From assembly GCA_963817915.1 (NCBI GenBank), contig CAWFQL010000016.1, positions 192,001 through 256,000 of the forward strand: 64,000 bases of DNA, read 5' to 3'. Positions 8,459 to 59,796 of this stretch are shown here, piece by piece (the first letter of the stretch is position 1; every line of letters begins with the position of its first letter). The translations under genes and the position numbers were made by a program. A model generated the notes under the pieces. It did not search any database. It was not told where the DNA came from and was given only the letters and a program-made list of their open reading frames with translations. The stretch is from an uncultured candidate division Zixibacteria bacterium. Its GTDB lineage: Bacteria; Zixibacteria; MSB-5A5; UBA10806.

Positions 8459-8511
8459 AATATTACTTTCCGAAAACGGTTATTGGGCTGTGTTTCCATC
8501 ATCGGACAGGC

Positions 8512-8548
8512 AAATAAAAACCCGCCGAGTCTTTTCGATGCGGCGGGT
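8512..8548 (-). terminator. Attenuator terminator in the ABC exporter leader
   Basis: Minus strand ACCCGCCG-13 nt-CGGCGGGT-TTTTATTT, lying between the leader ORF and the ABC start. Confidence 0.8.
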
Positions 8549-8570
8549 GTCAGTTCCATTTTAATTTATG

Positions 8571-8648
8571 TCAGATAATAGACAGACTACTCCCGCCGGG
8601 GAAATTGCCATTTGCGGCAACCGGTAATTTTATATTTGAATTAATCAT
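8571..8648 (-). CDS. Putative 25-aa leader peptide MINSNIKLPVAANGNFPGGSSLSII
   Basis: GAGGAG RBS; ATG at 8648, TGA at 8573-8571. Contains CGGCGGG (8592-8598), complementary to the 5' arm of the downstream terminator. Confidence 0.6.
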   Translation of the reverse strand: MINSNIKLPVAANGNFPGGSSLSII

Positions 8649-8787
8649 TTTCCCAATTCTCCTCGGCTCAATAGTCCTGAAAGAAATACGATAATTTCTT
8701 TTGCTGGTTTCAAGATATTTTTAATAATTTTAAATGTCAACAAAAATAATTGCGGCTTTTCCCAAAAACATTTCTCTTTAGCAAGCA

Positions 8788-8820
8788 AAATGAAAGGCCG
8801 TCGTTTACAGCGACGGCCTT
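8788..8820 (-). terminator. Intrinsic terminator of the C25 peptidase gene
   Basis: Minus strand AAGGCCGTCG-CTGTAAA-CGACGGCCTT-TCATTT. Confidence 0.75.
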
Positions 8821-8869
8821 CAAGAGAATTAACTTTTGATAATGATTATCAGTTAACCTGGGAATTCGA

Positions 8870-41454: not shown

Positions 41455-42909
41455 TTAATCTATCGGCAATGTAAATTCCACGACGGCGCCATTGTCGTTG
41501 TAGAATTTAATCTGGCCGCCATGTTCTTTGATTATTTTTTCGATTATGACCAGTCCCAGACCAGTGCCTCGTTTTTTCGATGTAATATAAGGCTGATCGA
41601 TCTTTTCAAGCTTTTCCCTGGGAAATCCCGGACCGTTGTCCTTGAAAATTATATTTATATTGTTTGACTGTTTGCTGACATCTATAGTGGCTTCAATATC
41701 TTTTTGCGATGCTTCGATACTGTTTTTTAGGAGATTATTGAATACTCGTGTAATCATTTGCTGATCGATACTTATTGATGGCAGGTTGTCGGGAATATTA
41801 ATTTTAATTGAGATCCTCTGGGACCCCGAATAAGACTGCGCGCAATTTTCGATTAGCTGCTTCAGAGAGCATTTCGATTTTTTTAACTCAGGCTCCCTGG
41901 CAAATGTAGCAAATTGATCGGCCAAATCCTGAAGAATCGTAATTTGATTTTGAATTGAATTCAAAGCCTGTTCGGTCTTTTCACCAGTTACCTTTTGGAT
42001 ATCGCCGCAAATTTCCCGAAGCCTGTATATTTCGATATTAATCGGAGTCAAAGGATTTCTGATTTCGTGGGCAATTCTCCGAGCTACCTCGCGCCAAGCG
42101 ACTAACCTCTGCATCTCCATCATCTTCTTCTGGTTTTCGCTGATTTCTAACGCCATCTTATTGAATGAATCAGCTAAATTAGAAAATTCGTCATCGCCGG
42201 CGAGTTCTACCTTGAAATCGAGGTTGCCTGCTCCTATCTGACGGGCGCCATTGCCGAGCACGACGAGCGGTTTCGATAGCTGCTTGCTGACAACGGCCGA
42301 CACTGCCAGGCCCGCAAATACGACCAGCCCCATGGCCATCAGAGTGGACAAGCCAAGCAGCTTCAATGATAGCTTACGATACATTTCAAGACCGCTGGAG
42401 GCCGCTACCGCCAGGGCCAATCTCTGCCCGCTCTCCGCATATCCAGCGGGCATAAGAATGGCGCATCCAATTTCAGATAAAGAATCTCCACGGGCCGCCG
42501 CAAGAAAGAAACGGCCATCGATATTCAAATGAAAGAAGCCTGATTTGCCCTTCAATTCCAACCAGAGGGAATTGGCATCAATTTGGATTGAATCGTTTAA
42601 TGCAAATAGAGTGTCGGCATTGCTTATTCTGAATGCCAGATCGACATTGTTTTCATGCGCCCATTTTAAAAGGCCGGAATTATCGGATATCGCAAAGCCC
42701 GGCTGCAATTTATCAACCAATACAGCAGATAACCTATTTTGCGATTGCTCTATCATCTGTTCGGCGTTTTCGAGGTTTTTCTCCAACGCTCCCGCGCCTA
42801 CTTTATTCAAAGTCGAATTGAGAAGGCTAAACGATAATGCCATTATCAAAATTACCGGAATCAGACCCACCGATAATATGATGATGAATATCCGCCTGCG
42901 AAATGACAT
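41455..42909 (-). CDS. Membrane sensor histidine kinase (HAMP, NtrY-like), no adjacent response regulator
   Basis: Two TMs, HAMP, AWREVARRIAHEIRNPLTPI, NLLKNS, DNGPG, GTGLGL. Confidence 0.9.
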   Translation of the reverse strand: MSFRRRIFIIILSVGLIPVILIMALSFSLLNSTLNKVGAGALEKNLENAEQMIEQSQNRLSAVLVDKLQPGFAISDNSGLLKWAHENNVDLAFRISNADTLFALNDSIQIDANSLWLELKGKSGFFHLNIDGRFFLAAARGDSLSEIGCAILMPAGYAESGQRLALAVAASSGLEMYRKLSLKLLGLSTLMAMGLVVFAGLAVSAVVSKQLSKPLVVLGNGARQIGAGNLDFKVELAGDDEFSNLADSFNKMALEISENQKKMMEMQRLVAWREVARRIAHEIRNPLTPINIEIYRLREICGDIQKVTGEKTEQALNSIQNQITILQDLADQFATFAREPELKKSKCSLKQLIENCAQSYSGSQRISIKINIPDNLPSISIDQQMITRVFNNLLKNSIEASQKDIEATIDVSKQSNNINIIFKDNGPGFPREKLEKIDQPYITSKKRGTGLGLVIIEKIIKEHGGQIKFYNDNGAVVEFTLPID

Positions 42910-42999: not shown

Positions 43000-45900
43000 T
43001 TAATAAATCTTGTATATGGCTGAAAATGCCCAATAATACGGCAGGCCATTATAAATGCCATAATTATATGAATTTGCCTCGCCGACAGCCTTGGTCAATT
43101 CTATGCCATCCCGCAGATCAGTAAGCAATTTCCAAAAATAGTATGACAATGATTGTTCCGGAATTGACCAAAGAGGTTTAAGATATGAATCGAATCCATC
43201 TCTGCCAGCCAGCATTATTTCCAAGGCAATTTCCTTGCTTTTAGTCATTGAGTCTCGCGGAATTTCGCTTATAATCGAATTTGACCGGTTAATATTTTCT
43301 CCGGCAATATTTAGATATGAGCGACCGCTGATAATAATCTTTCCATAATGTTCATTACATTTACCGACCGCCTCCGCGATTCCCATAATCGCCAGCGTGG
43401 CATTATCGCTTGACGCGCTGGTGTCAATAAAGCAAGGCATGGTTTTTAAGCTTTTTCGAGTTACCGTCTTGCCGGGAAGTCCAATGGCTCTTGTTATTGA
43501 ATACATATCGGCCAGGTATGCGGCTCCGGGCCTCTTTAACGCCTCAAACGGAAATGCCATCCACTCGAAATCAGGACAAATTATCAAATCGGTTTTTTGC
43601 TCCAATTGCTTTTCGAATGGCAAAATCAGAACATTATACCAGTATTCCAACGCTGAATCAGCGCGACTCTGATATTTCATAACTTCTGAAAAAGAACCAA
43701 TATCCCTATTTATCGAAGCAGTATCTTTCGACACGCTGCTATGTATCAATGTATCCTCGTCAATGTAAAACAACTCAAGCTCAGTCGGTGTTTGATAAAG
43801 CCTTATTACCGCATTATTGCCGTTCAATTTTGTTTGCAGATCACTCAGGCTTCCGCCATACCCGGCCCAGAGCGCGATTCTACTGTTATTTTCTCCACCG
43901 GATTTTGTAAGATAATTCGAGTAATTTCCTGATGAATCATTTTCAAATAATTTTATGCTTTTGTCCAGGATCGATTCATCGACACTATCATACCTGCCAA
44001 TCAAAATATTTTCCTCTGCCAGCTCGCGCACGAAGCCGACTTCAAAATAAGCCAATGACGAAGATAGATCGCGAATTTCAATTTTATATGCAGCATAATC
44101 ATCATAAAATTGCGCGATGTTGCCATCGAGAAAATATTTATTCCTGAAGTAACCTGATTCAGTCGGAATTATCCTAACAATCGAATCAGCGCTCGCCAAG
44201 TATTTTTCTAATTGCGGTCCCTTAAGCGATTTCCCCATGTGGTAATATGCACGCCATTTCAAAAAGCGTGTAACGGCAGGGTTATTATGTTCGGCCGCGG
44301 CCAAAAATAATTCGTTCGCTTTGTTTTGATCGCCGCGCTTTTCATTTAGTAAGGCCAATTGATATTGACAGAGAGAGCGCATGAATTCGTCCGATGTGGA
44401 ATCTGATATACTCTGAAAAAGCGAATCGGCTTTCTCGCCAAGGCTCGCACGAGTAGCTGCCTGCTTAAACTCTAAAATATAGTCCTTTTCAGCCAGCGAA
44501 TCGGATTTGATATATTCCAACGCTAATCTGTATTGTTCGAGCGCACTTTTGTAATCGTTCTTCTGGCGGAGAATATCGCCGATTTGCTCATAGATACTAT
44601 GGTATGTTGGCCTCGAATCGCCGGTAGCCGTTGCCAACGCCTTTTGGGCATAAAACCAAGCCGAATCCGTCTTATCAAACCATTGATATATTTCACTCCT
44701 CTCAAGACTGCCCTGAATACCATAATATTTACTATCCGGCAGGCCTTCCAATTGAGTCAGAGCTTTTCGCGGATTGCTATTCAATAGATAAGAATGGCTC
44801 AAGAGCAGTCTGCTTCTAAAAACCGAGAATGAGTCTCCAGAAGTTTGCGAATATTTGTAAGCGTCCTGCAAAATTGTATTTTCTCGACCATAATAATAAA
44901 GAGCATTATATATTTTCGATATTGCGGACGAGACACGATAGGCATTGCGATAATCATTATTATCCAGATATGGCTGCAATGATTTCGAATAATTCGCCCC
45001 GGCTTCAGCATAATTATTCTCCATATAAAATGACTGACCGAGCGTGAAATAGGAAGCCGCCTTTAATGTATCATCATTCGCCCCCTCGGCCAAATTTACT
45101 GCCAGAATTGCATACTTTTTCATATCGTCAGGCTTTTTTAAGTCACTATAATATCGAGCGAAATCCAAATATCCTCTAACTACGATACTGGAATCACCTG
45201 ATTTAATACCGATATCGATCGATTTATTAAGCGCCAAGTATTCGTCATCGTACAGTTTCGCGTTGCGCGCGATTCGCGCGTAATCCTGCCACATTTTCGC
45301 CTGTGTATTCAATGGCCAAAACAAACCGTTTATCATTTCTTTTTGGCTGCTAAGGGCTTTGCGGGAATTGCCCGCTCTAAGATAGACTCCGACTGCGCGA
45401 TCCATCACGCTGTATTTGTCTGAAACCGATATTCCCGACCCTTGCCACTGAGCTAGCCCCGAATCATATAATCGTGCCGCCTTATTCCAATCTTTCAATG
45501 CGGCCGCGCTATCCGCTCTCGCGATCGCTTGTTTATACCATAAAGCTTTTATCGTTTGTTTGTCTTTCGAATTCCAGCCGTTATTTCCATAAAAACAGGC
45601 CTTTTCACTTTTAAAATTATTCAGGCCGGTCAATTTATAAGAAGTGTTAAATCCCTCAGCCGGACTCTGGGATTTTATTTTATCGAAAAAACTTAATAAA
45701 AATTCATTATATTGATTTTTCGAAAGGGAATCTGATAATGTTATTATGGCTCCGATACCGTTGGCCGAAAGTGATTTAAGTATCAGCCATTTATCGGCAG
45801 CTCTATTGATTTCGGGGAAGCCGGTAATAATCAATCCAAATCCATCGGTCGAGAATTTGATAATATCTTTCACATAGAATCTTTGTCTACTACTATCCGA

Positions 45901-46380
45901 ACCATCCAGCGAATATTCCCAAAATGATAGCAGCGGATTTTCGCTATCATAATTTAGATGACCATCGATGACGATCCATCCAATGCCATTTATACTATTG
46001 CCGGCTATCAAAGTATCAGGGGCTATTTCTACTGAATTCAATGAATTGAGCTCGGCAGAATCCAATATTGAATCGTCGAATTTAATATGGCATATATTTT
46101 CGAGCGAGTAATTATTCCGGTTCTGCCACTCGAGGCAATCATTAATTGAATAGGCGCTTTTTATTGTCTTTTGCGGATAATATTTATACAGCAGGTTTCG
46201 TAGATATCCGCCGAAATTCCCTAACGATGAAACTATAACCGTTTGCTTTTTCTCTAATATTTTGGCTGCTGATGTTGGCAACGAATCGTTTGACCGATTT
46301 ACGACAAACGAATTGATGCTATCGTGATCGATGGCCAGGACTTTGATGCTATCGTTATAATCCACGGGGAGAAGATACAA
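43000..46380 (-). CDS. Fragment 4 of the giant TolB/TPR/CHAT protein: degenerate CHAT-like region, TPRs, C-terminal degenerate CHAT
   Basis: LSDLQTKL..AVIRLY, LIICPDFEWMAFPFEAL, YLADMYSI, LWSI, PYYWAF; frame open upstream to about 46440. Confidence 0.75.
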   Translation of the reverse strand: MYLLPVDYNDSIKVLAIDHDSINSFVVNRSNDSLPTSAAKILEKKQTVIVSSLGNFGGYLRNLLYKYYPQKTIKSAYSINDCLEWQNRNNYSLENICHIKFDDSILDSAELNSLNSVEIAPDTLIAGNSINGIGWIVIDGHLNYDSENPLLSFWEYSLDGSDSSRQRFYVKDIIKFSTDGFGLIITGFPEINRAADKWLILKSLSANGIGAIITLSDSLSKNQYNEFLLSFFDKIKSQSPAEGFNTSYKLTGLNNFKSEKACFYGNNGWNSKDKQTIKALWYKQAIARADSAAALKDWNKAARLYDSGLAQWQGSGISVSDKYSVMDRAVGVYLRAGNSRKALSSQKEMINGLFWPLNTQAKMWQDYARIARNAKLYDDEYLALNKSIDIGIKSGDSSIVVRGYLDFARYYSDLKKPDDMKKYAILAVNLAEGANDDTLKAASYFTLGQSFYMENNYAEAGANYSKSLQPYLDNNDYRNAYRVSSAISKIYNALYYYGRENTILQDAYKYSQTSGDSFSVFRSRLLLSHSYLLNSNPRKALTQLEGLPDSKYYGIQGSLERSEIYQWFDKTDSAWFYAQKALATATGDSRPTYHSIYEQIGDILRQKNDYKSALEQYRLALEYIKSDSLAEKDYILEFKQAATRASLGEKADSLFQSISDSTSDEFMRSLCQYQLALLNEKRGDQNKANELFLAAAEHNNPAVTRFLKWRAYYHMGKSLKGPQLEKYLASADSIVRIIPTESGYFRNKYFLDGNIAQFYDDYAAYKIEIRDLSSSLAYFEVGFVRELAEENILIGRYDSVDESILDKSIKLFENDSSGNYSNYLTKSGGENNSRIALWAGYGGSLSDLQTKLNGNNAVIRLYQTPTELELFYIDEDTLIHSSVSKDTASINRDIGSFSEVMKYQSRADSALEYWYNVLILPFEKQLEQKTDLIICPDFEWMAFPFEALKRPGAAYLADMYSITRAIGLPGKTVTRKSLKTMPCFIDTSASSDNATLAIMGIAEAVGKCNEHYGKIIISGRSYLNIAGENINRSNSIISEIPRDSMTKSKEIALEIMLAGRDGFDSYLKPLWSIPEQSLSYYFWKLLTDLRDGIELTKAVGEANSYNYGIYNGLPYYWAFSAIYKIY

Positions 46381-46387
46381 TTCATCA

Positions 46388-46750
46388 TTAGATATATTTT
46401 TCTGCAGTGAAATTGGAGATTCGGTTTCGAAATAGCAGGAAGGAGGCCAAGTTGGTATCGGCCGCGATCGCCTTATTCCTCATATCAGCAAGTCTTTGAT
46501 ATTGATGGGACAACTGATCACTGGTCTTTTTCAGTTCGATTTGCCCCTGGCTTCCAAGGTGTTCGAGCCGGCGTTTGGCCGATTTTAATTCGGTCAAACT
46601 ATTCGTATAATCCTTAACCTGATTGATATAGACCGAAAACAGTTTGCTTCTTGAGTCCTGTAGAGGATACAAATCGGCCCTCGCCAGTAAATTATATTTG
46701 CACTGCCTTTCGATATAAGACAATGCATCGATCAAATTATCCTTTTGCAT
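46388..46750 (-). CDS. Fragment 3 of the giant TolB/TPR/CHAT protein
   Basis: Frame open upstream to about 47000 (..SLYDRAFLISMQKDNLIDALSYIER, a pre-CHAT helical motif). Confidence 0.65.
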   Translation of the reverse strand: MQKDNLIDALSYIERQCKYNLLARADLYPLQDSRSKLFSVYINQVKDYTNSLTELKSAKRRLEHLGSQGQIELKKTSDQLSHQYQRLADMRNKAIAADTNLASFLLFRNRISNFTAEKYI

Positions 46751-46868
46751 GGATATTAGAAACGCCCGGTCGTAAAGGCTATTGACGAATTGAATATCGT
46801 CCTGAATAATTTTCGAAGGGATAATGCTCTCGTAGGAATTTATGGCATCGTTGATAGAAGTGATTGAA

Positions 46869-49328
46869 CTATCCTGGCTGAAAAATAGCCCTGATATTCC
46901 CTCGAATTTCGAATAGATATTTTCCGATAACGACTGATTTGCTGCATGTAGCGGCAGAAGACATATCTGAATTGGCTGTCGGGATATCTGAAAGAGCCAA
47001 TGATGCTATCGAATGATTGGCAAGAAGCACGGTCATCATTGACTGCTCTCTTCCGTAGGGTATATCAGCCATAGCGTCTTGAAATAGTTTGCGGCTTTCC
47101 TGTAGCAGAGCGGTTGCGTTTGATCCCAGATTATTTAAGTCATTTATCCATTGCTCCAGATTAGCGCCATTGGGAAGTGTTTGAATTTCCATAATTTGAA
47201 TAGCCCGATAGAATGCTATAACTCCCATGATGTTTTTCAGATTAGCCCTGGCTGTATAAAATGTCGGTTGAATATTCTTAAGTAATTTCGAAATTTCATT
47301 CTTTAACTTATCAAGTTCCGCTGGATAGTTTTTACTTTTGATCATGTAGCTTGATGAAAGAACGATTTGCGACCAATTAACGAGATCGGTATACGCGCTA
47401 ATATAGTCCGCCTTTTTTACAGATATGTCATAGGCATGCTCAAAGCAGGACTGCGCCGAGTCCAGCATCCCTATCTCAAAGTAATCTCTGCCCACTTGAC
47501 TCCATGCGGAGGCTAATTTGGGCCATTCGGAATTTTTTTCTAGAATTTGGAGTATTATTCTCGATGAGCCAATGGAGATCAAACGGTTGTTTGAATCTTC
47601 TGCGACTGATAATAAAAACGCGTGATTCGCTGGTTTTGTAAAACCATCGGGGTAAAGAGATCCGCCAAATGTAAACGGAGGCAATTTTATTGTCGGAATA
47701 CTAATTTTCAGAAATGTTATTATAAATCTGACACGGTCATCCTCAGTGATTCCCCCGTTTTTGGCCAGGCCTAATTCCTTAATACCCCGAAGTGCCATGT
47801 CCGATGCCCGGGTCTTATCTCCGATTGCTTGAAAACAAATAGCCTCGCCCTTGCATATATTAGCCAACATAATATGGTCTCTAATAGAATCGAAATATAC
47901 GAGCGCTACTTCATAATATTTAAGCGCAGTATCATAATCATTAAGCAATTGATAAATCATACCCAGCTTAATCGCGAATTTTGCTTTGCTCTTATTGTCG
48001 GATATTTCGACCGCCATTGAATAAAGCGTTGAAAAACAAGCTCTTGCTATATTAAGACTATCTACTTGAAATGCCGATTCACCGTAATGCATCAAATATG
48101 GTATCGTGTTCTCCCGCCTGATAATACTGGAATCGGTTTTGATCGCCGTCAGATAATTCTCGAACGCTTTTTGATACTGCGCGATCCCGAAATAACCTTC
48201 GGCGGCATTGAGATAAAATCCGGCTCTCATAAAGGGATATTGGGATGATAGCGCGATTCCGGTCAGGGAGAGATCTATGGTCTCTTCATACAATCCCAAA
48301 GGCTTTTTCGATGTTTGTTCAAGCAGGCAATTGACATATCCCAGTGATAGATAGCTCGCGGGGTTTTTAAAATCCAACTCTCTGGCGGACAATAATTCTT
48401 TGCGAGCCTTACCCAGATATCCGGTAGATTTTTCACTTTCAAAGCGCGCGACAGATTCCAGCGCGTCAAAATATTTTCGGACAGGCTGTTTATCGATAAT
48501 GCCGGCTGTTTTTTCCCATTTATTCCAATCCTTGGTGATTTCTATGCATTTCGCCGCGCCCCATAATGTCCTGATATTGGAATGATCCAATTCAAGCGCG
48601 TTCGAAAAATAGTCATAGGCGGTTTTGGCGTCCTGTGATAAGATATTTTCGCCCATCGATACTAACAGCGATACCATACTTTCCCGATAGGACCGTCGGT
48701 CCGCCTCGCTGTCGACAATTTGAATGTAGTTTCCCGATGAATCATAATAGACTTTAGCGAGTAGATAGTCATTTCGCTTTCTGGCAAGGTCTCCAAGCCG
48801 TTCGTATGAATAAAACATGATGTCTTTTTCATTCGGATAGTTCGAAAGTATCTCATTGTATTTCCATTCGGCGGTCAGGCTTTGCCCGGAATAGTAGAAT
48901 CTATTGGCTTGTTCCAGGACCGCAAACGCCGATAATCTTTTGTATTCCGAAAAACTGTTTCGAATAGACTCCAACATTCCGGTGGCGATATCCGTCGGTT
49001 CTTTCCGTGTAATATTAATTATATCCCCAATCGCCGAGTCGCCCCAGGCGGCATCTTTTCCGAAATTATCGATATAATTTACATAGATGACGACCAGGTC
49101 CAATGGATCTCCGGTAAAGCTTGAAACCATATTTCGCAATTTTAGAAGCTGCAGATAGGAGACAAAGCCGCTGTCGGAAGGGTACCGTTGTATCCCTTGC
49201 GTAATAAGACTATCGCTGATGTCGATATTCCCGATAATATTCCCGGCAATGACACAATGGATATAAGCCTTCTTTACAATTTCAGATGAGAGACTCGCAT
49301 CGTTAACCAACTTACGTGTCAAATTCAA
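46869..49328 (-). CDS. Fragment 2 of the giant TolB/TPR/CHAT protein (TPR array)
   Basis: Many TPR-like helical repeats; frame open upstream to about 49427. Confidence 0.75.
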   Translation of the reverse strand: MNLTRKLVNDASLSSEIVKKAYIHCVIAGNIIGNIDISDSLITQGIQRYPSDSGFVSYLQLLKLRNMVSSFTGDPLDLVVIYVNYIDNFGKDAAWGDSAIGDIINITRKEPTDIATGMLESIRNSFSEYKRLSAFAVLEQANRFYYSGQSLTAEWKYNEILSNYPNEKDIMFYSYERLGDLARKRNDYLLAKVYYDSSGNYIQIVDSEADRRSYRESMVSLLVSMGENILSQDAKTAYDYFSNALELDHSNIRTLWGAAKCIEITKDWNKWEKTAGIIDKQPVRKYFDALESVARFESEKSTGYLGKARKELLSARELDFKNPASYLSLGYVNCLLEQTSKKPLGLYEETIDLSLTGIALSSQYPFMRAGFYLNAAEGYFGIAQYQKAFENYLTAIKTDSSIIRRENTIPYLMHYGESAFQVDSLNIARACFSTLYSMAVEISDNKSKAKFAIKLGMIYQLLNDYDTALKYYEVALVYFDSIRDHIMLANICKGEAICFQAIGDKTRASDMALRGIKELGLAKNGGITEDDRVRFIITFLKISIPTIKLPPFTFGGSLYPDGFTKPANHAFLLSVAEDSNNRLISIGSSRIILQILEKNSEWPKLASAWSQVGRDYFEIGMLDSAQSCFEHAYDISVKKADYISAYTDLVNWSQIVLSSSYMIKSKNYPAELDKLKNEISKLLKNIQPTFYTARANLKNIMGVIAFYRAIQIMEIQTLPNGANLEQWINDLNNLGSNATALLQESRKLFQDAMADIPYGREQSMMTVLLANHSIASLALSDIPTANSDMSSAATCSKSVVIGKYLFEIRGNIRAIFQPG

Positions 49329-49419
49329 GAGGGAATCCCATCCGGTGGTCTGCAGATTCTCCAGGCCATCCTGAAAATCCAGCCAGGCTAAGTCTAATTT
49401 GATATCTGCCCGAAAATTA

Positions 49420-50538
49420 TTATCGGTCGGTAGACAACGCCGGCGATAATTCCATCCGAGCCAGTTCTCGCAGATCCAGATTGCCGTAAATTTCTGCTGA
49501 TTTAATTAGGGAAGATTTGCAGGAATCCGGGAAATATTTATAAGCCGAATAATAAGCATCTGCCAGAACAATCGAATCTTTATAATTTAATGAAAATCGT
49601 AATATAGAGTCGGCGAATAGCTGTTGTTCCCGAAACGTCTTAAGCCTTGGTGTCAGGCCATCGATATTAAGCGAATAGATATCACCATCGCTACCGACCG
49701 CGGCCAGGCTTCGTTCCCGAGAAATCGCGGGCTGGTCGAAACCATACCCATAATATAGGTAGGTGACAGTATTATCATTTAATCTCAGGGTCGCTATATT
49801 GGGAATATCATCGAGATTGATTTTGTCATTATTGTCAGTATCCCGGTTTCTATTAGAATAAATAATCTCCGAGCCATCAGGAGTATAAACGGGATGTGTG
49901 GCGATCCCATCTCCGGTATTGAGCAAAATCTGAACGGAATTACTGACATCATAAGTCGCCAGTCGCATTAATCCTGACGAATCGACAGTTACATATACGA
50001 TACTTTCGCCTGAAGGCGCGAATGACGGTTCTTTTCCGGATGGGCCTTTAACGGAATTTTTGACTTTAGTATCATAAAAATAGATAACCGGCTGTTTTTC
50101 GTTATCGATATGAACATAGGCTATCTTCTTATTATTTGGTGAAATGACTGGGCTATCGAATGAGCCAGGGCCCCCGACTAATTTTTCCGTTTTTGTCCCT
50201 TTGATATCGCTTAAATAAATCTCGCCCCCGGCATTATCCTTGGTAGAAACATATAAAATCCGGTCATTCCCCCAGAACGACGGTGAGTATTCAGAGGATG
50301 TGTTTTTTGTGACCTGCCAGCCTTTTTTGGATTTGAGATCAACAACCCAAATATCCTCGTTCCCGCTTCGAGTCGATGTGTAGGCCAGATATCTTCCGTT
50401 AGGCGAAAACGAAGGATCATAGTCCGGAGCAAGGTGACTCGTAATCGGCGTCGGTAGATTTAATTCAGATGCGACCAGCCCTCCGCCAAGAATCAGTGAG
50501 GCGATTGCTATAATTTTGAAAATTCTGCCTATAGCCAT
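49420..50538 (-). CDS. Fragment 1 of the giant protein: signal peptide + TolB-like (PD40) beta-propeller
   Basis: PSFSPNGRYLAYTS, PVISPNNKKIAY, PSFAPSG, PVYTPDG repeats; DTDNNDKINLDD Ca-binding-like loop; ATG abuts the upstream stop (TAGATG). Confidence 0.8.
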   Translation of the reverse strand: MAIGRIFKIIAIASLILGGGLVASELNLPTPITSHLAPDYDPSFSPNGRYLAYTSTRSGNEDIWVVDLKSKKGWQVTKNTSSEYSPSFWGNDRILYVSTKDNAGGEIYLSDIKGTKTEKLVGGPGSFDSPVISPNNKKIAYVHIDNEKQPVIYFYDTKVKNSVKGPSGKEPSFAPSGESIVYVTVDSSGLMRLATYDVSNSVQILLNTGDGIATHPVYTPDGSEIIYSNRNRDTDNNDKINLDDIPNIATLRLNDNTVTYLYYGYGFDQPAISRERSLAAVGSDGDIYSLNIDGLTPRLKTFREQQLFADSILRFSLNYKDSIVLADAYYSAYKYFPDSCKSSLIKSAEIYGNLDLRELARMELSPALSTDR

Positions 50539-51111
50539 CTACTTCCTTTGCCATTTGCCGGATGATTCTTCAATCCACGAGCCGCTGGGAGAAGAGCGAG
50601 CCATAAGGCCGGCGAAATCCTGTCCCGCGATTTTCAAACTGTCTTGCGATGTTATCCCGCGCGAACTGGCGTAAAATTCCAATATGATTTTGCGATCATG
50701 ATTTTCGGCCTCGACCAGATTATTTACGGCATCGATCCCCTGAATTGTATCCGACATCACGCGTACTGTCCCATCGATTTTTTCGCCCACATATCCCTGT
50801 TTTTTCAATTCATTCAGGTCGCCCGAAATTGTCTGGCGGCGAATTTGGGCCAGAATCAATTCTCGTCTCGAGTTTCTATCGGATATTATGGAAGTATCCG
50901 CGGGAATTTTGAATTGATCCTGGAAAAATGTTCCCCCAGACCATACCGCGGCAACCATCAAGGGGTCTTGAGATAGCCGTTCTTGTTTTCCAAGGAGCTG
51001 ATTTTCAAGGGCGGTTTTATCGGATGTAATCTTCATCTCAGGCGGTTTTATAGTGCATCCTAATGATAAGATTAATCCTGCCAATACCATATTGCGAAGG
51101 TTTATTGCCAT
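50539..51111 (-). CDS. YdbL/DUF1318-family lipoprotein with YnbE-like N-terminus
   Basis: Lipobox SLGC; LKKQGYVGE..DG, LVEAENHDR, GSWIE...GKWQRK. Confidence 0.8.
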   Translation of the reverse strand: MAINLRNMVLAGLILSLGCTIKPPEMKITSDKTALENQLLGKQERLSQDPLMVAAVWSGGTFFQDQFKIPADTSIISDRNSRRELILAQIRRQTISGDLNELKKQGYVGEKIDGTVRVMSDTIQGIDAVNNLVEAENHDRKIILEFYASSRGITSQDSLKIAGQDFAGLMARSSPSGSWIEESSGKWQRK

Positions 51112-54100
51112 CCTGCCTCCTTCAAATTATCAATTATCGTCTTTATTGGTATGCGGCCATACCTTATTGGCATCGGAATCCTCAAAATCGGGATCGCCTC
51201 CGCAAAAAATGGCTGATCCATATAAATTTCCGGATACGCGGCGCCATGTTCTATCTTAAATGAGAAACTTTTCGGTCTGTAACTTAGGTCGATTATTTTG
51301 AGAAATTTTCTGTTCAATAGAGCTCGTGTTTGAGCTACGCCGGGATTCTGATTTTGAGGATCGATGACATCCAGAACCCTATTTGCTACCTGCGGCCCCA
51401 TTTCGGTTATATTAAATACGCCATCGAGCGTATAATCGGCGCCGGGCGCTATAAGGCCTCTGCCCCTAAATGAAAAATCAGCCGAGAAAAGAGCCGAACT
51501 CTCCTGAGGTCCGAACGATCCAACAAGCTGGTTGAAATCAAGACTGGCTAATTCGAGCGACATTTCATATCCCAGCCTATCGAAATTAGGAAATTCGCGC
51601 ATCATGTTTATTTCGCTAATATCGAAACTGGATTTTCCTACGAAATTCCCACCGAGAATATTGCCGGTGATCAATGGCATCATCAGGACACCATCGCGGA
51701 ACGATAAATCGACCGAAATATTATCTACATTGATATCGGGCGCGCGTACGCTGCCAATCGTAATATTCCCGAACTTCCCTTCGGAGATCATTCCCTGTCG
51801 GTCGCGCCTGTAAGTCGATATAGGAAACATGCTCCCGACAGGTTTCTTGACGAATAACGAATCGTACATATTCATCGTACCGGTTATTGGCGCATTTCCG
51901 GTTATACCACTGCACGATATCCCCGCTGGCCCGACAATTCCGAGGCTATCGAGATTAAATTGGCCGCCGAATTTCAGCGTATCGCCAAGCTGATCGGTTT
52001 CAAAATCACAATTTAACGCTCCGTAAATCGAAATCATGCTGTTTAACGCTGAAGTATCCGGCGAATCGCGCTTAATTGAGTATTTGATATTGGAAAATGG
52101 GATATCTTTTACCGAACCAAATTCGCCGGCGCAGACAATACTTGTTCTCAATGATGGGATAAGGGCAGTCAAGTTTCCCAGTTTCCAGATTGAATCTGAA
52201 CCATAGTCCAGGCGCGCGCTTATAGGAATATTTTCAAATGCGATATCGGAGTAATTCTCGGCGTAAAGAGCGCCAACAGTATCATGAGATTCGATCGACA
52301 TTTCAAGTCCATGCAGGCTAATCTCAGATAACCCGGTAAATTGGCGGATAAGTATTTTATAATCTTCCAAAAGCACATCGGTTGGCTCGATAACAATTGA
52401 AATTGCCCCACTCGGATTAATACTGTCAGTTGGGCTGGATATATTTCCATTAATTTTAGTGAAACCCGAGATGTCCATCGGCCCCAATATCTCTGTCAGA
52501 TTTTTCGGGAAAAACGCGGGCAGTTGAGCATCGTCGATATTAAGATAAAATCTGGCGCTGATGCTGTCTTTGCTTGACTTCGATAACGGATAATTCGCGG
52601 ACAGATTACCATCGAAAACATTATCCAATTTATAATTTGCATCGGCCCTGATTCTATCTTTATCAATCATGGCATTTCCCTGAAGGTCAAATTTCCGGTC
52701 GCCCAATGAAAGAGTGTCATTTCCCGAAACAATTGACATGCCCATCCCGGCGATATCAGATTTAAACGCGACCGAGTCCCTGTGTCCCGAAAGAGAGGTA
52801 GTCATATTGATTTTGCCGTTTGCCGACATCTCGCCATTTGTCATCAGACGATTCGATAAATTCGATAGATCGAGATTATTGGCCGCGATATTGAAATTAA
52901 CATTAGATTTTTCCAAGACTGCATTTATGACCATATCGCCGCCGAAGAAATCCGCGATCTTCCCATCTAAATCGAACGTGACAATATTATCATTGATACC
53001 GCCATTTCCTTCCAACGTTAAATTAGCAATCTTCAAAGCCTTATCTTTGGCCAATAGATACCTGACACTTTCCACAGACGAAGCAATAGTGCCATTGGCC
53101 GAGCCATTTGTCCCATCCACAAGAATGCTGCCGTTGAGACCGGCCACAAACGCTGTGTCGCTATAATTTATGGCCAGATTTGAAAGCTCCAGCCCAAGAT
53201 GGTAAACGAGGCTTTCCGTCGAAATGTTTATAAGGCCTTTATCGAGCGATATCGCCCCATCAAGCTTCAATGGCATGCCGGATTGTCGGATCAAACCTGA
53301 GAATTGTTCTAATTTCCAGATAACTGGATCCAATACTATCATTACGTTGGGATTTTTGTTGATCTGCACCATCCCACCGCCCGAAATCAACCGACTGTTA
53401 TTTAGAGAGATTCTCATCGAATCAATATCAACCGAATTGTCGTTGATATTCGTGGTGGAATTCAGGGAAGCATCTACATTTCCAATATCATACTTGTTCC
53501 CAAAAGTAGCTTCAATATTCGATATGCTTATATTGAAATTCTGTCTTGATTTATCAACGGTCGAAAATTTTCCCGAAGCCGCTATATCCAAATTGCATTC
53601 GATCCCGATTGTATCCTGCTCATAATGAATTTTGCCATCCTTGCCTTCTGCCTCATATGCAAACGAGAAATTCTTGATATTTGTGAAATTCAGCTTTGAT
53701 ATTGCCAGCTCAAGGTTCATATCAGCCTGAGGGCCAATCACCGCGAATGAGCTGACGACGCAGCTATCCATAATTACCCTGAATGGCAATTCGACTGTTT
53801 TAGGTTGGGATGTATCCGGAACGGCCGCCATTAGAGATTTGGGGATATTTCCGTAATCAAGCAAACCACCATCCACCAGGATATAACGGATCTTCAGCTT
53901 TTTCGATATTAATTCATTGGGGGATATTTTGATTCTTATGCTATCCACCGAAAACCATTTGGTGGAATCTTCAGAATTAAGAAGCGTTAATCCAATAATT
54001 TTTATTTGAAGCCAGTTGTCAATCTTGAGTGATTCTATTTGAACTTCGCTTGCAGTTGATTTTCTTAATGTCTCTGAAGCTAATGTCTTTAATCGATTAT

Positions 54101-54194
54101 CACTGAAATATAGCCTGGCTGAAATAATGGCAATAATCAGAAACGCGAATAGTCCACCGATTATTCGCAACGATATTCGTATCTCTTTGCGCAC
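51102..54194 (-). CDS. AsmA-like/YdbH-like bridge-type protein (inner-membrane anchor, long repeating beta structure)
   Basis: N-terminal TM plus AsmA-N-like segment (RLYFSDNRLKTLASETL..EVQIESLKI); ~1000 aa of alternating beta-strand pattern; directly upstream of a DUF1318 gene, as in ydbH-ynbE-ydbL. Confidence 0.7.
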   Translation of the reverse strand: MRKEIRISLRIIGGLFAFLIIAIISARLYFSDNRLKTLASETLRKSTASEVQIESLKIDNWLQIKIIGLTLLNSEDSTKWFSVDSIRIKISPNELISKKLKIRYILVDGGLLDYGNIPKSLMAAVPDTSQPKTVELPFRVIMDSCVVSSFAVIGPQADMNLELAISKLNFTNIKNFSFAYEAEGKDGKIHYEQDTIGIECNLDIAASGKFSTVDKSRQNFNISISNIEATFGNKYDIGNVDASLNSTTNINDNSVDIDSMRISLNNSRLISGGGMVQINKNPNVMIVLDPVIWKLEQFSGLIRQSGMPLKLDGAISLDKGLINISTESLVYHLGLELSNLAINYSDTAFVAGLNGSILVDGTNGSANGTIASSVESVRYLLAKDKALKIANLTLEGNGGINDNIVTFDLDGKIADFFGGDMVINAVLEKSNVNFNIAANNLDLSNLSNRLMTNGEMSANGKINMTTSLSGHRDSVAFKSDIAGMGMSIVSGNDTLSLGDRKFDLQGNAMIDKDRIRADANYKLDNVFDGNLSANYPLSKSSKDSISARFYLNIDDAQLPAFFPKNLTEILGPMDISGFTKINGNISSPTDSINPSGAISIVIEPTDVLLEDYKILIRQFTGLSEISLHGLEMSIESHDTVGALYAENYSDIAFENIPISARLDYGSDSIWKLGNLTALIPSLRTSIVCAGEFGSVKDIPFSNIKYSIKRDSPDTSALNSMISIYGALNCDFETDQLGDTLKFGGQFNLDSLGIVGPAGISCSGITGNAPITGTMNMYDSLFVKKPVGSMFPISTYRRDRQGMISEGKFGNITIGSVRAPDINVDNISVDLSFRDGVLMMPLITGNILGGNFVGKSSFDISEINMMREFPNFDRLGYEMSLELASLDFNQLVGSFGPQESSALFSADFSFRGRGLIAPGADYTLDGVFNITEMGPQVANRVLDVIDPQNQNPGVAQTRALLNRKFLKIIDLSYRPKSFSFKIEHGAAYPEIYMDQPFFAEAIPILRIPMPIRYGRIPIKTIIDNLKEAGWQ

Positions 54195-54351: not shown

Positions 54352-57300
54352 TCAGATTGTTTTTGTCTCGGCTGCGGTAAGGATTTCACGAACCTTTTGT
54401 AGCAATTGACTCGTTTTAAATGGTTTTGCGATAAAATTGATCGTGGAATCGAGAGCGCCGTCCTTAATTATGGTCTTGTCGGTATGGCCCGACATAAATA
54501 GCACCTTGATATTGGGGAATGAGACAGAGACGCGATCATAAACTTGTTTGCCATTCATACCGGGCATAATGATATCAGTTATTATAAGCTGAATCGGTGA
54601 ATCATAGCTGCTGCAAATAGCTATTGCCTCGCCGGGGTGAGATGCCTGCAACACCTTATAGCCTGCCTTGGATAATATTCTGAATGCCAGATCTCTGACA
54701 ATATCTTCATCTTCTACCAAAAGTATAGTTTCCGTACCGCCTAAAACCAGGCTCTTATCTTTATCTTTGCTCGATTCATCAAATACCTCTTCCGAGCGTG
54801 GTAGAAATATACTAAATACCGTGCCGACACCCGCTTCGCTCTCGACCATAATCTGTCCGCCGCTCTGTTGTACAATACCATAAACCGTTGATAGCCCAAG
54901 GCCTGTACCTTTGCCGACATCCTTGGTCGTGAAAAATGGTTCGAAGATATGGCTTCGCGTCTTTTCATCCATCCCATATCCGGTATCGCTTACCGATAAC
55001 TTTATATATCTACCCTTGCTAATTTCCACCCCGTATACGGCTGGATTATCATCAAAATTAACATTAGATGTCTCTATTATGAGCTTTCCGCCATGAGGCA
55101 TGGCGTCGCGGGCATTGACGCTCAAATTCATTACGATCTGTTCAACCTGACTGATATCCGCTTTAATATTTCCCAAATCACCGGCTAAATTCAGCTTAAT
55201 ATCTATGTTTTCCCCCATTACCCTTTGCATCATCTTGTTCATATCGACAACTACCGAATTCAGGTTAAGCGTTTTGGGCTGCAGCATCTGGCGACGGCTG
55301 AAGGCGAGGAGTTGACGAGTTAGCGACGCGGCCCTTTCGCCTGCCTTCTTGATTTCCTCAACGTCCTGCTTCATAGGATCAGAATCATCGAGCCGTTCCA
55401 GGGTTAATTCGCTGTAACCATTAATTGCGGTCAGTAGATTATTGAAGTCATGGGCGATTCCGCCGGCCAATTGGCCGATTGCTTCGAGCTTCTGCGAGTG
55501 GCGGAGTTGGTTTTCGAGCGCAACCTCTTGTGTCACATCACGTTTGACCGACACATAGTTGATGATTTTCCCCGCGCCATCGCGAATTGGCGAGATCGTA
55601 GCATCTTCCTCGTATAATTCGCCGGATTTCTTTTTATTAATGATGTGACCCTTCCAGGTTTCGCCTCTTGTAATAGTGTCCCACATCTCTTTATAGAATT
55701 TCGCGTCATGTTTGTTGCTTCTCAAAATCCGTGGGTTTTGGCCGATCGCCTCACTGGATTTGTAACCGGTTATCTCCTCGAACGCGGGATTCACATATTG
55801 GATATTTCCTTGGGCGTCTGAAATAACAATAGCTTCCGCTGACTGTTCAACAGCGGTTCCAAGTCGGCGCAATGTTTCCTGCGCGTTTCTCAATTCGGTA
55901 ATATCTCTCGCGAACACAAAATGATATTCCTGACCGTTAAATTCCTGATAATTGATATTAACTTCGACCGGGATATGGCCGCCATCTTTCTTTCTGAAAT
56001 CGGACTCTGAAATGAAATTGCCGTGTAATTTGATTTTAGTCCATAGGCCCAACCAATTTTGAGGAGTGATAAATGTATCGATATCCATGATAGTCATAGA
56101 CTGCAGTTCGTCCTTTGTGAAGCCAAGCATCGTACTTGCAACTTCATTGACATTGATAAAGTGGCCATCTGGCGCAATCCAAAATATCAAGATATCTGAA
56201 TGATCGATACCATACTGAGTCAGCTTTAAGGCGTCTTCCATCTTTTTCCGTCCGGTTATATCGCGGGCCGCCGCAAAAATGCCAATCACCTGTCCCGCAT
56301 CGTCTCGATAAACCGAGGCGTTATACAAAACCGACATTACGCTTCCACTCTTGTGCCTCAAGTCAAGGGCATAGTCTATAACTTTCTCATCGTGGAATAC
56401 TTGGAGGAATCCCTCTCGCGCCTTTTCAGGATTCGTAAAATAGCCGGAAAAATCGGTTCCGATTAGTTGATTTCGATTAAATCCGGTTGCCTTTTCCGTA
56501 GCGGCATTAACGTCGGTTATCTTGCCGTTTGGTCCGATCGTGAACATCGGATCAAGGCTGGCTTCGATCAGACTGCGGTTATAGACTCCCGCCAAGGCCA
56601 ACGCTTCCTCGGCACGTTTATGATCCGTAATATCCTCTACCATCGCCAGCGTATATGAGTTATTTTTGCTATCCTCATTCAGCATTGCAACTGTCAAATT
56701 AGCCCATATATACTCGCCGTTTCTTTTAACATATCTCTTTCTAATGCTGTAGCTTTTTACGTCGTTGGTGAATATCCGGTGGGCTTTTTCAAGGCTTTCG
56801 TCCATATCTTCAGGGTGAGTTATGTCATTGATCGTCATATTCATTAATTCTTCTTCCGTATACCCTAACATATTACAGAACGATGAATTAACTTTCGTGA
56901 AACGGAGGTCGGAATCTACGATTACAATACCCAATGGCCCGTGCTCAAATATATTCCTATATCTTTCTTCGCTGGCTTTTAACGCATCTTCCGCCCTTTT
57001 CCGTTTGGATATATCCCTGGCGGCGCTAACAAATCCTATAATATTGTTATTATTATCCCTGAGATAAGAAGCTTTTATTTCCGCCCAGATTTTGCTCCCG
57101 TCTTTCCTGATATATTCAAGCTCAATCGTTCTGTATCTAAAGGGATCGCTACTATCAACTTTTTCCAGCTCAAGATCCTCTTTGAATTCCTGATTGAGTT
57201 TATTGAATGATTCGACAGTCAGATACCGATCGACGGTTAGTTCCATCGCTTCTTCGACAGTATAGCCCAGCATATTTTTTATTGAGGGACTTATATAAGT

Positions 57301-59796
57301 GAAACGGAAATTCAAATCCAACGTCCAGATGATGTCCAGTGAATTATCCGCCAATAATCGATATCTTTTTTCGCTCTCGCGCAACGCTTCCTCGGCCAAT
57401 CTGCGTTCAGTAATATCAGCAACAAATCCTTCAAGGGCTATGACAGCGCCATCGTTTGAAAATATACCCTGGCCTTTTTCCCAAACCCATTTCTCAGTAT
57501 TATCCGCCGTAATAATCCTATAAGTAGTTTCGAATGGCTCTTTCTTAATCAAAGCCTCCTGAACATCTTCGAATACGCGCATTTTATCGTCGGGATGAAT
57601 TATATCATTATAGGTGATATTAGATTTGGTGATAAATTCATCCGGCGTATACCCGGTCAATCCGTAACAACCTTCGCTTAAAAATTCCATCGTCCAGTCG
57701 ATATCATTCCGGCAACGATATGCCATGCCGGGGAGATTGCCCATCAGGGTAGTAAGCGCCCTTTGTTTTTCGCGCAATTCATCCGAAACACTTGCCGCAG
57801 TGAGGGAAAGAGCTGCTTCTGTGGAAATAGATTCAAGCTGGTCTGCCTGCTCGGGCCCAAACGCATTGTACTGATAGCTTTGAACACTCAAGACGCCTAC
57901 CAAACGCCCCTGGGTCTTTAATGGGAAATAAGTGAGTGAACATGATGGTCTAGTAGAACCATCAATAATCGGATAATTGCTTTTCTGCAATTTCTGAATC
58001 TCTTCCGGCGTCCTGTGAATTATGACCGGACGGCCCTGAGTCATGACATGATGGAGATTTTCTCCTAATTTATGATAATTGATAACTCGGTTGGTCTCAA
58101 TTATTTTGTCGCCGCTTGCTTCCGTATCAAACCTGTAAAGGATTTCAGATGATTCATTCGGCTCCGGCGAATTTAGGAGCGCGATAAAGCCGGCGTCACA
58201 CGGCATCAATGTAGAGATGAAATCGAAAGTAGTTCTGGCTATTTCAGTTATTTCTGATAACCCCACCAATGCTTCCAAAAAGCTAGCTCGGGCCTTTGCC
58301 GTCTTTTCATCTCTCCTCGGTTCGGATATATCGGTTATACTAATAAGTAGTTTGCGACCCGATTTTCCCGATGCTCCCGAGATGCCGATTATTTCGAAAC
58401 TTAGCGTCTGGATAATATCGCCGGTGCCCGATCTGCACAGCAAATCAATTTCAAATCCGACGGGTTGTTCATATCTTTTATTGAGATACTCCGTAAGCCG
58501 TTGTCTGATTGTACTGCATGTATCCAAATTATGCTGGGATTCCATTGTCGTGGCGTTTTTGATTGATTCGATAATGCTTTTGCCGACCATGGGTTCGCGA
58601 AAAGCATTGAATTTCTTGGTAAAACCGAAATTGACATATTCAATTATAAGCTTATCATTGATGATTGCCAAGGGCGAAGGGATCGATTCGACTATCATTC
58701 TGTTCAATTCGCTCAGGCGTTGGATTTCGGCAGATTTTTGCTTTTCTAATTCAAGCTTTAGGCGCGCCTTAATCGCCCATCTCGACGAGATTCCAAACAG
58801 TACAAATAATACCACGAGGAGCAGAATCATGAACGCCATCAGTAGATAATCTTTGTTTATGGGACTTGAAAGATCATCGCGGTTGCCTACAATCGCCGAG
58901 CTAAAATGACGATTAAGAATATTTATCTCTGTGAACGCAACCAGTTCTATGGTGCCGCCCGCCAAATTATTTTTGTATTCAATTGTCCCGGATTTCTCAT
59001 CCTGAATTCGCTTTCTTACGATATCTTCCATTTCTTCTTCTTCGGGATCTATACCGTTATGCTCCGCCCGATAATCTTCTTCGATTTCTGCCCAGGTTCT
59101 ATAGAGATATTCGGGATTGGGGTGATACAAAATTCTGCCGTTGTCATCGACTATCCATATTTCGCCGCCATTAGAAGCGCCTTCCCGAATGAACGATTGG
59201 GTCCAGAATTCCCTAAGATCAATTCCGGCCATAACTACGCCAATGAAATTCATGGACTTATCATATAGCGGTAAGCTTAAAAGCAGGGCTTTTTCTGTGC
59301 TATCATACGGGCATGTACTTATTCCGGTCAAATAGGCTTTACCAGTAATGCGAGGTTGGATGAAGCCTTCCTGATTCGAAATATCGGTACCCCTTGAACT
59401 GTCATGCCTGGGATATCCAAAGAGGAAATGACCCTTTGAATCGGTCATATAAATATTCTGAATTACGTTATCGTGTGAGGCATAAAATTGCCTTATTTCT
59501 TCCATGGCTTCGGAGGTAGCCTCATTTGCCCTTATTGAATATTTAATATGGGTCAAATCCGAGTAAATATCCTCAAATTTGGCTTCTACCGAATTCTTCA
59601 GATAATGGATTGTTGTCAACTGCTGTTTCTGATATGCATCTATTAAGGCTTTTTCGTTTTGAAGATGCTTCTTATTAACCAAAAATACCAGTACCGGTAT
59701 AATAATGGCCACCAAAACCAATAGTCTTTGATGTTTTATAAAATTCTTAATATAGATTGCGAACTGAGAGAATCTCTTAAAACCTGAATTAAACAA
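54352..59796 (-). CDS. Hybrid sensor histidine kinase (TM-Cache-TM, PAS, GAF, six further PAS, HisKA, HATPase, REC)
   Basis: [42 protein letters not shown]-terminal receiver (TDIIMPG, KPF). Confidence 0.92.

Follow-up and report, generated by a model that had tools for sequence, protein, structure and literature searches.

It is not settled how phospholipids move to the outer membrane of Gram-negative bacteria or how this movement is controlled. The current candidates are AsmA-like proteins, namely TamB, YhdP and YdbH, for which few partners are known (TamA, YnbE and YdbL). The stretch of DNA analysed here, hereafter the window (64,000 nucleotides; positions 192,001 to 256,000 of contig CAWFQL010000016.1), comes from an uncultured candidate division Zixibacteria bacterium and carries a gene for a predicted AsmA/TamB-like protein (g1), a gene for a lipoprotein with a YdbL domain (g2) and a giant gene encoding PD40, TPR and CHAT-like domains (g3). 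The question raised by this arrangement is whether the three products belong together at the cell envelope and, if so, what so large a protein with caspase-like domains would be doing beside a putative lipid bridge. On balance, we lean towards the view that the region is one operon encoding a conserved, uncharacterised three-protein cell-envelope module. In the open reading frame listing the genes follow one another on the minus strand in the order g1, g2, g3:

51102..54194, minus strand: g1, predicted AsmA/TamB-like, inner-membrane-anchored protein of 1030 amino acids with a GTG start (open reading frame listing)
50539..51111, minus strand: g2, lipoprotein of 190 amino acids with a C-terminal YdbL (DUF1318) domain (open reading frame listing)
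43000..50538, minus strand: g3, giant PD40/TPR/CHAT-like gene including its stop codon, found as four open frames with three +1 frame changes

The tight coupling that an earlier note on this DNA had pointed out is borne out. The g1 stop and the g2 start share a 10-nucleotide overlap (ATGGCAATAA), the g2 ATG is preceded by GGAGG at a distance of 5 nucleotides, and the junction between the g2 stop and the g3 start reads TAGATG. A promoter and terminator scan of the locus found no clear operon boundary. The host genome (3.33 Mb in 22 contigs, 93.9% complete) holds the window on the contig referred to below as C16.

Linkage of the three genes across genomes

A survey of DUF1318 gene neighbourhoods, suggested by the earlier note, found the linkage to a PD40-TPR-CHAT gene conserved, both in Zixibacteria and in metagenome contigs. 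Within the phylum, a g2 profile has matches in 18 of 285 genomes, which comprise this genome, 9 of 13 others from its own family, and 1 of 10, 2 of 3 and 5 of 5 genomes in three further families, the remaining families having none. In all 18 genomes, g2 is flanked by g1 (1029–1091 amino acids) and by an intact g3 (2448–2750 amino acids) wherever the contig reaches. A pattern scan with g2 returned 10 loci from Zixibacteria-family records only; it missed two of the families that the profile detects (f3 and f4) and is uninformative on range. For the metagenomes, 80 loci were retrieved through a g2-family motif and grouped into 64 clusters at 90% identity, a sample that is biased by the motif and carries no taxonomy. 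Of 48 clusters that could be assessed, 41 have a g3-like gene at most 1.5 kb downstream of g2. On the upstream side, 26 of 50 assessable clusters have a g1-like gene, a figure obtained with a profile built from Zixibacteria g1 only, which may undercount. Where both sides could be assessed (40 clusters), 19 have the trio, 14 have g2 and g3 only, one has g1 and g2 only, with a CsgG-TPR-SH3 protein where g3 would be, and 6 have neither partner. The core pair in metagenome contigs is g2–g3, which is tighter than g1–g2. The g3 relatives are named "CHAT domain-containing protein" or similar, and their sources include candidate division KSB1, Calditrichaeota and Desulfonema magnum.

The position of the locus adds a further piece of evidence. 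In eight relatives the trio is located between lptD and ftsK, in the order lptD-g1-g2-g3-ftsK. In the present genome, lptD and ftsK lie side by side on a different contig (C17:281406–287519, outside the window), and the trio is found on C16 between two histidine kinase genes; since the two former flanking genes have become neighbours and the trio is elsewhere, we conclude that the three genes moved as a block. The kinase genes are on the same strand as the trio and are not conserved as its flanks in relatives. The upstream one (54352–59796, minus strand) encodes a Cache-GAF-multi-PAS hybrid histidine kinase of 1814 amino acids with a receiver domain, and the downstream one (41455–42909, minus strand), which starts 90 nucleotides past the g3 stop, encodes a HAMP histidine kinase of 484 amino acids.

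These observations bear directly on the possibility that the adjacency is meaningless and that three unrelated envelope genes are chance neighbours. Such a reading could draw on the variation of the flanking genes between genomes. It is nevertheless highly improbable: order and tight spacing are kept in four Zixibacteria families, dozens of divergent metagenome contigs retain both with different flanks, and the trio was relocated as a unit in this genome. Chance is rejected as the source of the trio, because other genomes repeat both its genes and their order.

Several records depart from the common arrangement or carry additional genes beside it. In the single-contig record behind one genome (G013; loci L014/L024), g3 is cut after 206 amino acids by a run of 100 N and its remainder is found approximately 2.6 Mb away; this record is probably mis-scaffolded at the 100-N gap. 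One metagenome variant (L084/L094, positions 5189–12124) encodes a g1-like AsmA/YhdP-type protein of 1169 amino acids, a further protein of 452 residues, g2, and a 455-residue CsgG-TPR-SH3 protein that replaces g3. Directly after g3, an inositol-monophosphatase-family gene is present in two loci (L062:13512–14330 and L082:18663–19460), open reading frames of 267–272 amino acids occupy the same position in three others (L090, L103 and L115), and a receiver-PP2C (SpoIIE) gene follows g3 in another (L118:18157–19368). In a relative, a protein of 935 amino acids encoded upstream of lptD (L016:86–2893) ends in approximately 94 residues that recur in more than 100 open frames across the present genome at 35–50% identity; this tail is probably a C-terminal sorting-tail domain family.

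The bridge-like protein and the YdbL-domain lipoprotein

The earlier note described g1 as both AsmA-like and YdbH-like, and the two parts of this description fared differently. Direct sequence similarity is limited: Pfam reports only the N-termini of AsmA and DUF748 (approximately the first 115 model positions, E 1e-4, below the cut-off), with AsmA positions 1–116 aligned to g1 residues 1–113, and a word-based homologue search with g1 recovered only g1 itself. The hydrophobic stretch at the N-terminus, IIGGLFAFLIIAIISA, is the single predicted membrane anchor. An AlphaFold2 model of g1, computed with 13 orthologues (mean pLDDT 79.9), consists of a helix at residues 2–29 followed by about 50 beta strands. 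Structural comparison with VIA matches this model to the TamB beta-taco 5vtg_B (Z 8.7, root-mean-square deviation 3.6, 124 of 131 residues aligned), in which the TamB fragment 963–1138 superposes on g1 residues 98–266, and to TamB 9xdd_B (Z 9.2). The top Foldseek match is LPD-3 (9cap_A), a bridge-like lipid transfer protein of eukaryotes (E 3.4e-8, with a very low TM-score). An AsmA/TamB-like assignment of g1 is thus supported by its predicted fold. The hydropathy difference between even and odd strand positions is 2.05 versus 1.42 in shuffled sequences, and 30 of 46 strands exceed their own shuffled mean, a pattern that barrels show too. As modelled, g1 likely forms an open groove, the inner face of which may be hydrophobic.

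The YdbH part of the description did not hold. A genome-wide search for the YdbH family (PF11739) gave nothing at E <= 1, and an hhalign comparison of g1 with Escherichia coli YdbH gave a probability of 0.1%; the sole weak match to this family is the g1 orthologue in one other genome (G025; E 0.001, 18.5 bits versus a cut-off of 26.3). The g1 orthologues, which are 953–1125 amino acids long and encoded upstream of g2, are most conserved in their C-terminal 200 residues or so. A separate, canonical TamB of 1181 amino acids is encoded elsewhere in this genome.

The second protein is better anchored in known families. Its N-terminal part has a lipobox (LGC at residues 17–19, with Cys19 as the lipidation residue) and a motif, CTIKPPEV-ITSEKTALENQLLG, in which the orthologues barely differ. 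A variable linker leads to the C-terminal DUF1318 domain (PF07027; residues 96–190, E 2.5e-14, 54 bits versus a cut-off of 27), the sole DUF1318 match in the genome. This domain aligns with residues 18–107 of E. coli YdbL (hhalign probability 86%, E 4.9e-6). Cys19 and Arg140 are invariant among orthologues. In the available part of a recent study, YdbL E60/R61 are among the residues that shift upon binding of the YnbE C-terminal helix (bioRxiv 10.64898/2026.03.16.712125). These residues align with D139/R140 of g2, the arginine being present in every relative aligned (9 of 9 and 16 of 16); the YdbL interface residues L68 and N72 are not kept, the positions aligned by hhalign being Y147 and R151. 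With its 190 amino acids, lipobox and conserved N-terminal extension of 75 residues, g2 departs from the soluble periplasmic YdbL type of about 100 amino acids and belongs to a long-form DUF1318 subfamily, for which a profile search over 1.84 billion representatives found 255 representatives at E <= 1e-10, mostly 180–210 amino acids long and aligned over their full length.

The lipoprotein with a DUF1318/YdbL domain seen in the earlier note therefore stands, and the likeness to YnbE that went with it does not: the best genome match to the YnbE family (PF13617) has an E-value of 0.62 and is located outside g2, and hhalign of g2 against E. coli YnbE gave a probability of 4.8%, covering the lipobox only. 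By inspection only, the order of lipobox, strand and helix at the g2 N-terminus resembles YnbE, and g2 as a fusion of YnbE and YdbL is put forward here as an idea. Stand-alone genes for long-form DUF1318 lipoproteins are also found, in three loci (L100, L106 and L111) where they follow dapB and face large Ser/Thr kinase-AAA genes and where g1 and g3 are missing.

The giant gene and its CHAT-like domains

The third gene does not read through in the assembly. It consists of four open frames (50538–49423, 49505–46872, 47005–46391 and 46479–43003), each shifted by +1 relative to the preceding one, and the sites of change were placed by scoring each single-base removal against a profile of 14 intact orthologues:

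49423..50538, minus strand: piece 1, frame 1, signal peptide and PD40 (TolB-type) propeller, 372 amino acids (Pfam; orthologue profile 6–376)
49446..49462, best site 49454, minus strand: frame change 1 (+1)
46872..49454, minus strand: piece 2, frame 2, TPR-rich (Pfam TPR_12, E 1.1e-12; profile 375–1219)
46943..46954, minus strand: frame change 2 (+1)
46436..46950, minus strand: piece 3, frame 0, helical linker region (profile 1216–1390)
46435..46436, minus strand: frame change 3 (+1)

The four pieces tile the orthologue profile without gaps (6–376, 375–1219, 1216–1390 and 1382–2555), they contain no in-frame stops, and an intact orthologue of 2518 amino acids (L011) is collinear with all of them. 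Because of this tiling and collinearity, g3 is one gene with three frame changes, as the earlier note had proposed. No long homopolymer and no common motif were found at the three sites. Programmed frameshifting was considered and appears unlikely because the orthologues are read intact in one frame; the three sites also share no motif.

Whether the frame changes belong to the organism or to the assembly was approached by tblastn of the relatives' locus proteins against this genome, covering about 12 distinct conserved genes with a clear single locus. Frame changes are present in four of these: g3 (three), lptD (C17 near 284281), a flgE-like gene (C11 near 224760) and a conserved gene of 471 amino acids (C9 near 306445), the last three sites being outside the window. 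All six changes share the +1 direction, which points to systematic insertion-type errors of the assembly. The gene lptD is essential in model Gram-negative bacteria. A genome-wide tally of overlapping open frames (325 in +1 versus 329 in −1) was replaced by the tblastn test; it is uninformative because ordinary neighbouring genes dominate it. Since the g3 pieces are free of stops, keep their match to the profile and share their type of damage with genes that are unlikely to be dispensable, the three frame changes are probably assembly errors rather than biology, and the organism probably makes an intact g3 of about 2,500 amino acids.

The same evidence has to be held against the view that the locus is decaying, g3 being a true pseudogene and the displaced trio no longer functional. 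Three frame changes in a single gene of 7.5 kb, all away from long homopolymers, would be in keeping with decay, as would the departure of the trio from its ancestral position between lptD and ftsK and the fact that most of the phylum dispenses with the module. Yet g1 and g2 are intact, the stop-free pieces of g3 retain a full-length match to the orthologue profile, and lptD and the flgE-like gene are broken by +1 changes in the same assembly, where a rate of about 3 changes in 20 kb outside g3 leads to an expectation of about one in g3. We consider decay quite improbable.

The domains assigned to g3 in the earlier note (signal peptide, PD40, a calcium-type loop, which reads as DxDxDG, TPR and two CHAT-like regions) were recovered:

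49807..49842, minus strand: propeller loop DTDNNDKINLDD, a calcium-site-like DxDxDG motif that aligns with the orthologue motif DTDxDGxLTxxDxP, D233 and D244 being invariant
45580..46383, minus strand: predicted middle CHAT-like alpha/beta domain without a His/Cys dyad (AlphaFold2; piece 4 residues ~33–300)
43828..45570, minus strand: second TPR solenoid (AlphaFold2; piece 4 residues ~304–884; Pfam TPR_12 and TPR_2)
43000..43815, minus strand: predicted C-terminal CHAT-like domain, catalytic region deleted or degenerate, with the stop codon (piece 4 residues ~889–1159)

The signal peptide has no lipobox cysteine. The propeller that follows (Pfam PD40, E 3.6e-20) is better conserved than any other part of g3; its match to the TolB model TIGR02800 (E 7.5e-29) covers the propeller part only and scores 100.9 bits versus an equivalog cut-off of 343.15. 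From its motif we take the loop DTDNNDKINLDD to be a putative calcium site. Open reading frame and Pfam scans found no transmembrane segment and no anti-sigma domain in g3, and no adjacent ECF sigma factor gene. The AlphaFold2 model of the last 1159 residues (pLDDT 78.8) has an alpha/beta domain (33–298), a TPR solenoid (304–884) and a second alpha/beta domain (889–1157). The solenoid matches the TPR domain of LGN (4wne_A) with a VIA Z of 22.7 over 294 aligned residues; the VIA list for this model consists entirely of TPR matches over residues 305–900 and is silent on the two alpha/beta domains. The best Foldseek matches, at a probability of 1.00, are separase (7nj1_A, E 1.6e-9), DdvA (8rw5, E 1e-8) and Csx29 (8eex_B, E 7.5e-7). 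A comparison of residues 1–2046 with the ESM Atlas returned CHAT/TPR clusters only, at 0.82; we take this as a pointer, not as evidence. Taken at the level of models and domain matches, g3 is a protein predicted to be exported to the periplasm, with a TolB-type propeller and two TPR-plus-CHAT units of the separase/craspase/DdvA type.

The active sites of these units differ between lineages. In the window g3, the Pfam CHAT match is limited to 50 residues (915–964, E 0.009), and two CHAT stretches are detected by Pfam in the orthologues L045, L062 and L082. The middle domain retains CHAT-type motifs that align with those of orthologues, without conservation of the His and Cys columns, and among the aligned Zixibacteria orthologues no conserved His or Cys was found at the catalytic columns of either domain. 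The last 330 residues of g3 were aligned for 12 metagenome relatives and 8 Zixibacteria sequences, the window included: both (F/L)(A/S)CHG and SACETG are present in the C-terminal domain of 8 of the 12 relatives and of none of the 8 Zixibacteria. In the family to which the window belongs there is a deletion over the His strand, and FACHG and SACETG are both missing. Four of eight relatives scanned (L045, L046, L062 and L082) match the full CHAT model of Pfam at E 1e-63 to 1e-101, and the other four range from E 8e-36 down to no match. Judged by these motifs, the window g3 belongs to a family of apparently active proteases but is itself dead, so that the pseudo-caspase of the earlier note describes Zixibacteria and not the many relatives that keep the motifs. 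With both dyad residues lost, only binding, scaffolding or sensing would be possible in Zixibacteria. The loss is old, and function can coexist with it, since every Zixibacteria orthologue aligned shares it and is intact in other respects; this is a further point against decay.

The likeness to DdvA brings in another explanation, in which g2 and g3 alone make up a periplasmic sensor or protease and g1 is a mere frequent neighbour or a dedicated assembly factor, with no role in lipid transport. With its propeller and TPRs, the g3 protein would read a protein signal, and g2 would be a chaperone or inhibitor holding a helix of g3 in the way YdbL holds YnbE. The best argument for it is the metagenome count, in which g2 and g3 without an adjacent g1 are so much more frequent (14 of 40 clusters) than g1 and g2 without g3 (1 of 40). 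DdvA (8rw5 and 8rot), which is periplasmic according to the available part of its description (PMC11506125), is one of the top structural matches to the C-terminal half of g3, and regulators are encoded near g3 in some loci, namely the receiver-PP2C gene in L118 and the histidine kinases that flank the window trio. On the other side, g3 has none of the membrane-spanning or anti-sigma parts, nor the neighbouring ECF sigma gene, that the scans looked for; in Zixibacteria g1 is always present and translationally coupled to g2; and, the dyad being lost, signalling by proteolysis is impossible in this organism. We regard this explanation as doubtful, though deserving of real weight.

A candidate mechanism and its place among known systems

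The explanation that we prefer for the locus as a whole, and hold to be somewhat probable, is an operon encoding an outer-membrane adaptor (g2), a bridge (g1) and a scaffold or protease (g3). In E. coli, a sheet of the AsmA/TamB type spans the periplasm and is believed to convey phospholipids. The g1 protein would have one helix in the inner membrane, the remainder being a long open beta-sheet of this kind. We infer an outer-membrane location for g2, which would be a lipid-tethered adaptor whose YdbL pocket, by analogy, grips a helix of a partner. In most lineages this helix partner would be g3, held at the outer membrane by g2, and where g1 is present, g2 would couple g3 to the far end of the bridge, the conserved C-terminal 200 residues of g1 meeting both g2 and g3. 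Where a lineage keeps the dyad, the CHAT domain of g3 may cut envelope proteins; because g3 there retains the His and Cys of caspase type, it is probably a protease acting on such substrates. In Zixibacteria, g3 would only bind, scaffold or sense. Prediction of a complex of g1 800–1030, g2 19–190 and g3 25–372 scored 0.00 in two runs, which counts neither way on binding.

A bolder version of this mechanism holds that g2 and g3 are an outer-membrane-tethered caspase-like machine that docks on the AsmA-like lipid bridge and controls it, proteolytically where the dyad is kept and as a dead scaffold or gate in Zixibacteria. We think this version unlikely, although it would have consequences beyond the present locus. 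If true, bulk lipid flow to the outer membrane would for the first time have a regulator of the protease type, and bacteria would offer an example of a conserved complex in which an enzyme has become a pseudoenzyme.

Several considerations weigh against the three-protein module and its proposed role. Outer-membrane barrels outscore TamB as structural matches of g1, with Z up to 12.3. There is no detectable similarity between g1 and E. coli YdbH or between g2 and YnbE, and the analogy with E. coli therefore goes back to fold class and the YdbL domain alone. The g2 profile did not find the module in 267 of the 285 phylum genomes and, as a canonical TamB is encoded separately in this one, the module must be accessory. 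Beside the g2–g3 pair, an adjacent g1 is missing in the 14 of 40 metagenome clusters mentioned above (divergent copies may escape the Zixibacteria-only profile), and the bridge is thus not an obligate neighbour; in 6 of 40, g2 has neither partner. The frame changes may be real, as they are outside homopolymers and g3 has three of the six observed. Finally, the contacts among the three proteins and the movement of lipids through g1, like the localisation of g2 and any regulatory role, are inferred.

The operon points to an unstudied class of partners of AsmA-like proteins in many uncultured lineages (Zixibacteria and, by source names, KSB1, Calditrichota and Desulfonema). The dyad-keeping relatives point to caspase-like proteolysis in the periplasm, for which no characterised example other than DdvA was found, and copies with and without the dyad offer a natural contrast for separating scaffold from protease functions. 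In line with the earlier note, which named the trio its best candidate for an uncharacterised system, a full-text literature search over the main texts of papers found no description; the only paper containing both "DUF1318" and "CHAT" is apparently an unrelated soil survey.

The nearest known arrangement is ydbH-ynbE-ydbL of E. coli, which, in the available parts of the published accounts, encodes the AsmA-like intermembrane bridge YdbH-YnbE and the periplasmic modulator YdbL (PMC11126948; bioRxiv 10.64898/2026.03.16.712125 = PMC13464000). Both loci have overlapping genes, with a large inner-membrane-anchored all-beta protein of the AsmA superfamily first (by prediction in the window), then a small lipoprotein and DUF1318/YdbL. 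They differ in that the window fuses the lipoprotein and the YdbL domain into one protein of 190 amino acids and in that only the window has a PD40-TPR-CHAT partner of 2,500 amino acids, E. coli having feaR after ydbL. With TamB, g1 would share the N-terminal anchor and a long beta-taco, as modelled; unlike TamB, it has no Pfam match to the TamB/DUF490 C-terminal domain and no adjacent gene for a TamA-type barrel. The periplasmic PD40 beta-propeller of g3 resembles that of TolB of the Tol-Pal system, but it falls below the equivalog cut-off and follows the signal peptide directly, without the N-terminal domain of TolB.

For the remainder of g3, the comparison is with caspase-like proteins that carry helical repeats. 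Separase and Csx29 of the type III-E CRISPR craspase (PDB 7nj1, 8eex and 7y84) combine these two elements as g3 does, but they are cytoplasmic, active proteases with known substrates, whereas g3 is exported and appears catalytically dead in this lineage. DdvA of Myxococcus xanthus, described in the available part of its report as a transmembrane anti-sigma factor that has a TPR-CHAT domain in the periplasm (PMC11506125; PDB 8rot and 8rw5), resembles the modelled g3 in having a TPR-CHAT unit of separase/craspase type outside the cytoplasm. According to the same source, DdvA is a single-pass membrane protein that has a cytoplasmic zinc anti-sigma domain and keeps its His-Cys dyad; g3, in contrast, is soluble and exported, has a propeller and two TPR-CHAT units, has lost the dyad in this lineage, and shares its locus with AsmA-like and YdbL-like genes instead of a sigma factor. 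What is new relative to all of these systems is the attachment of an undescribed giant TPR-CHAT partner to an AsmA-like/YdbL module, in the window as a seemingly dead copy that the assembly presents with frame errors.

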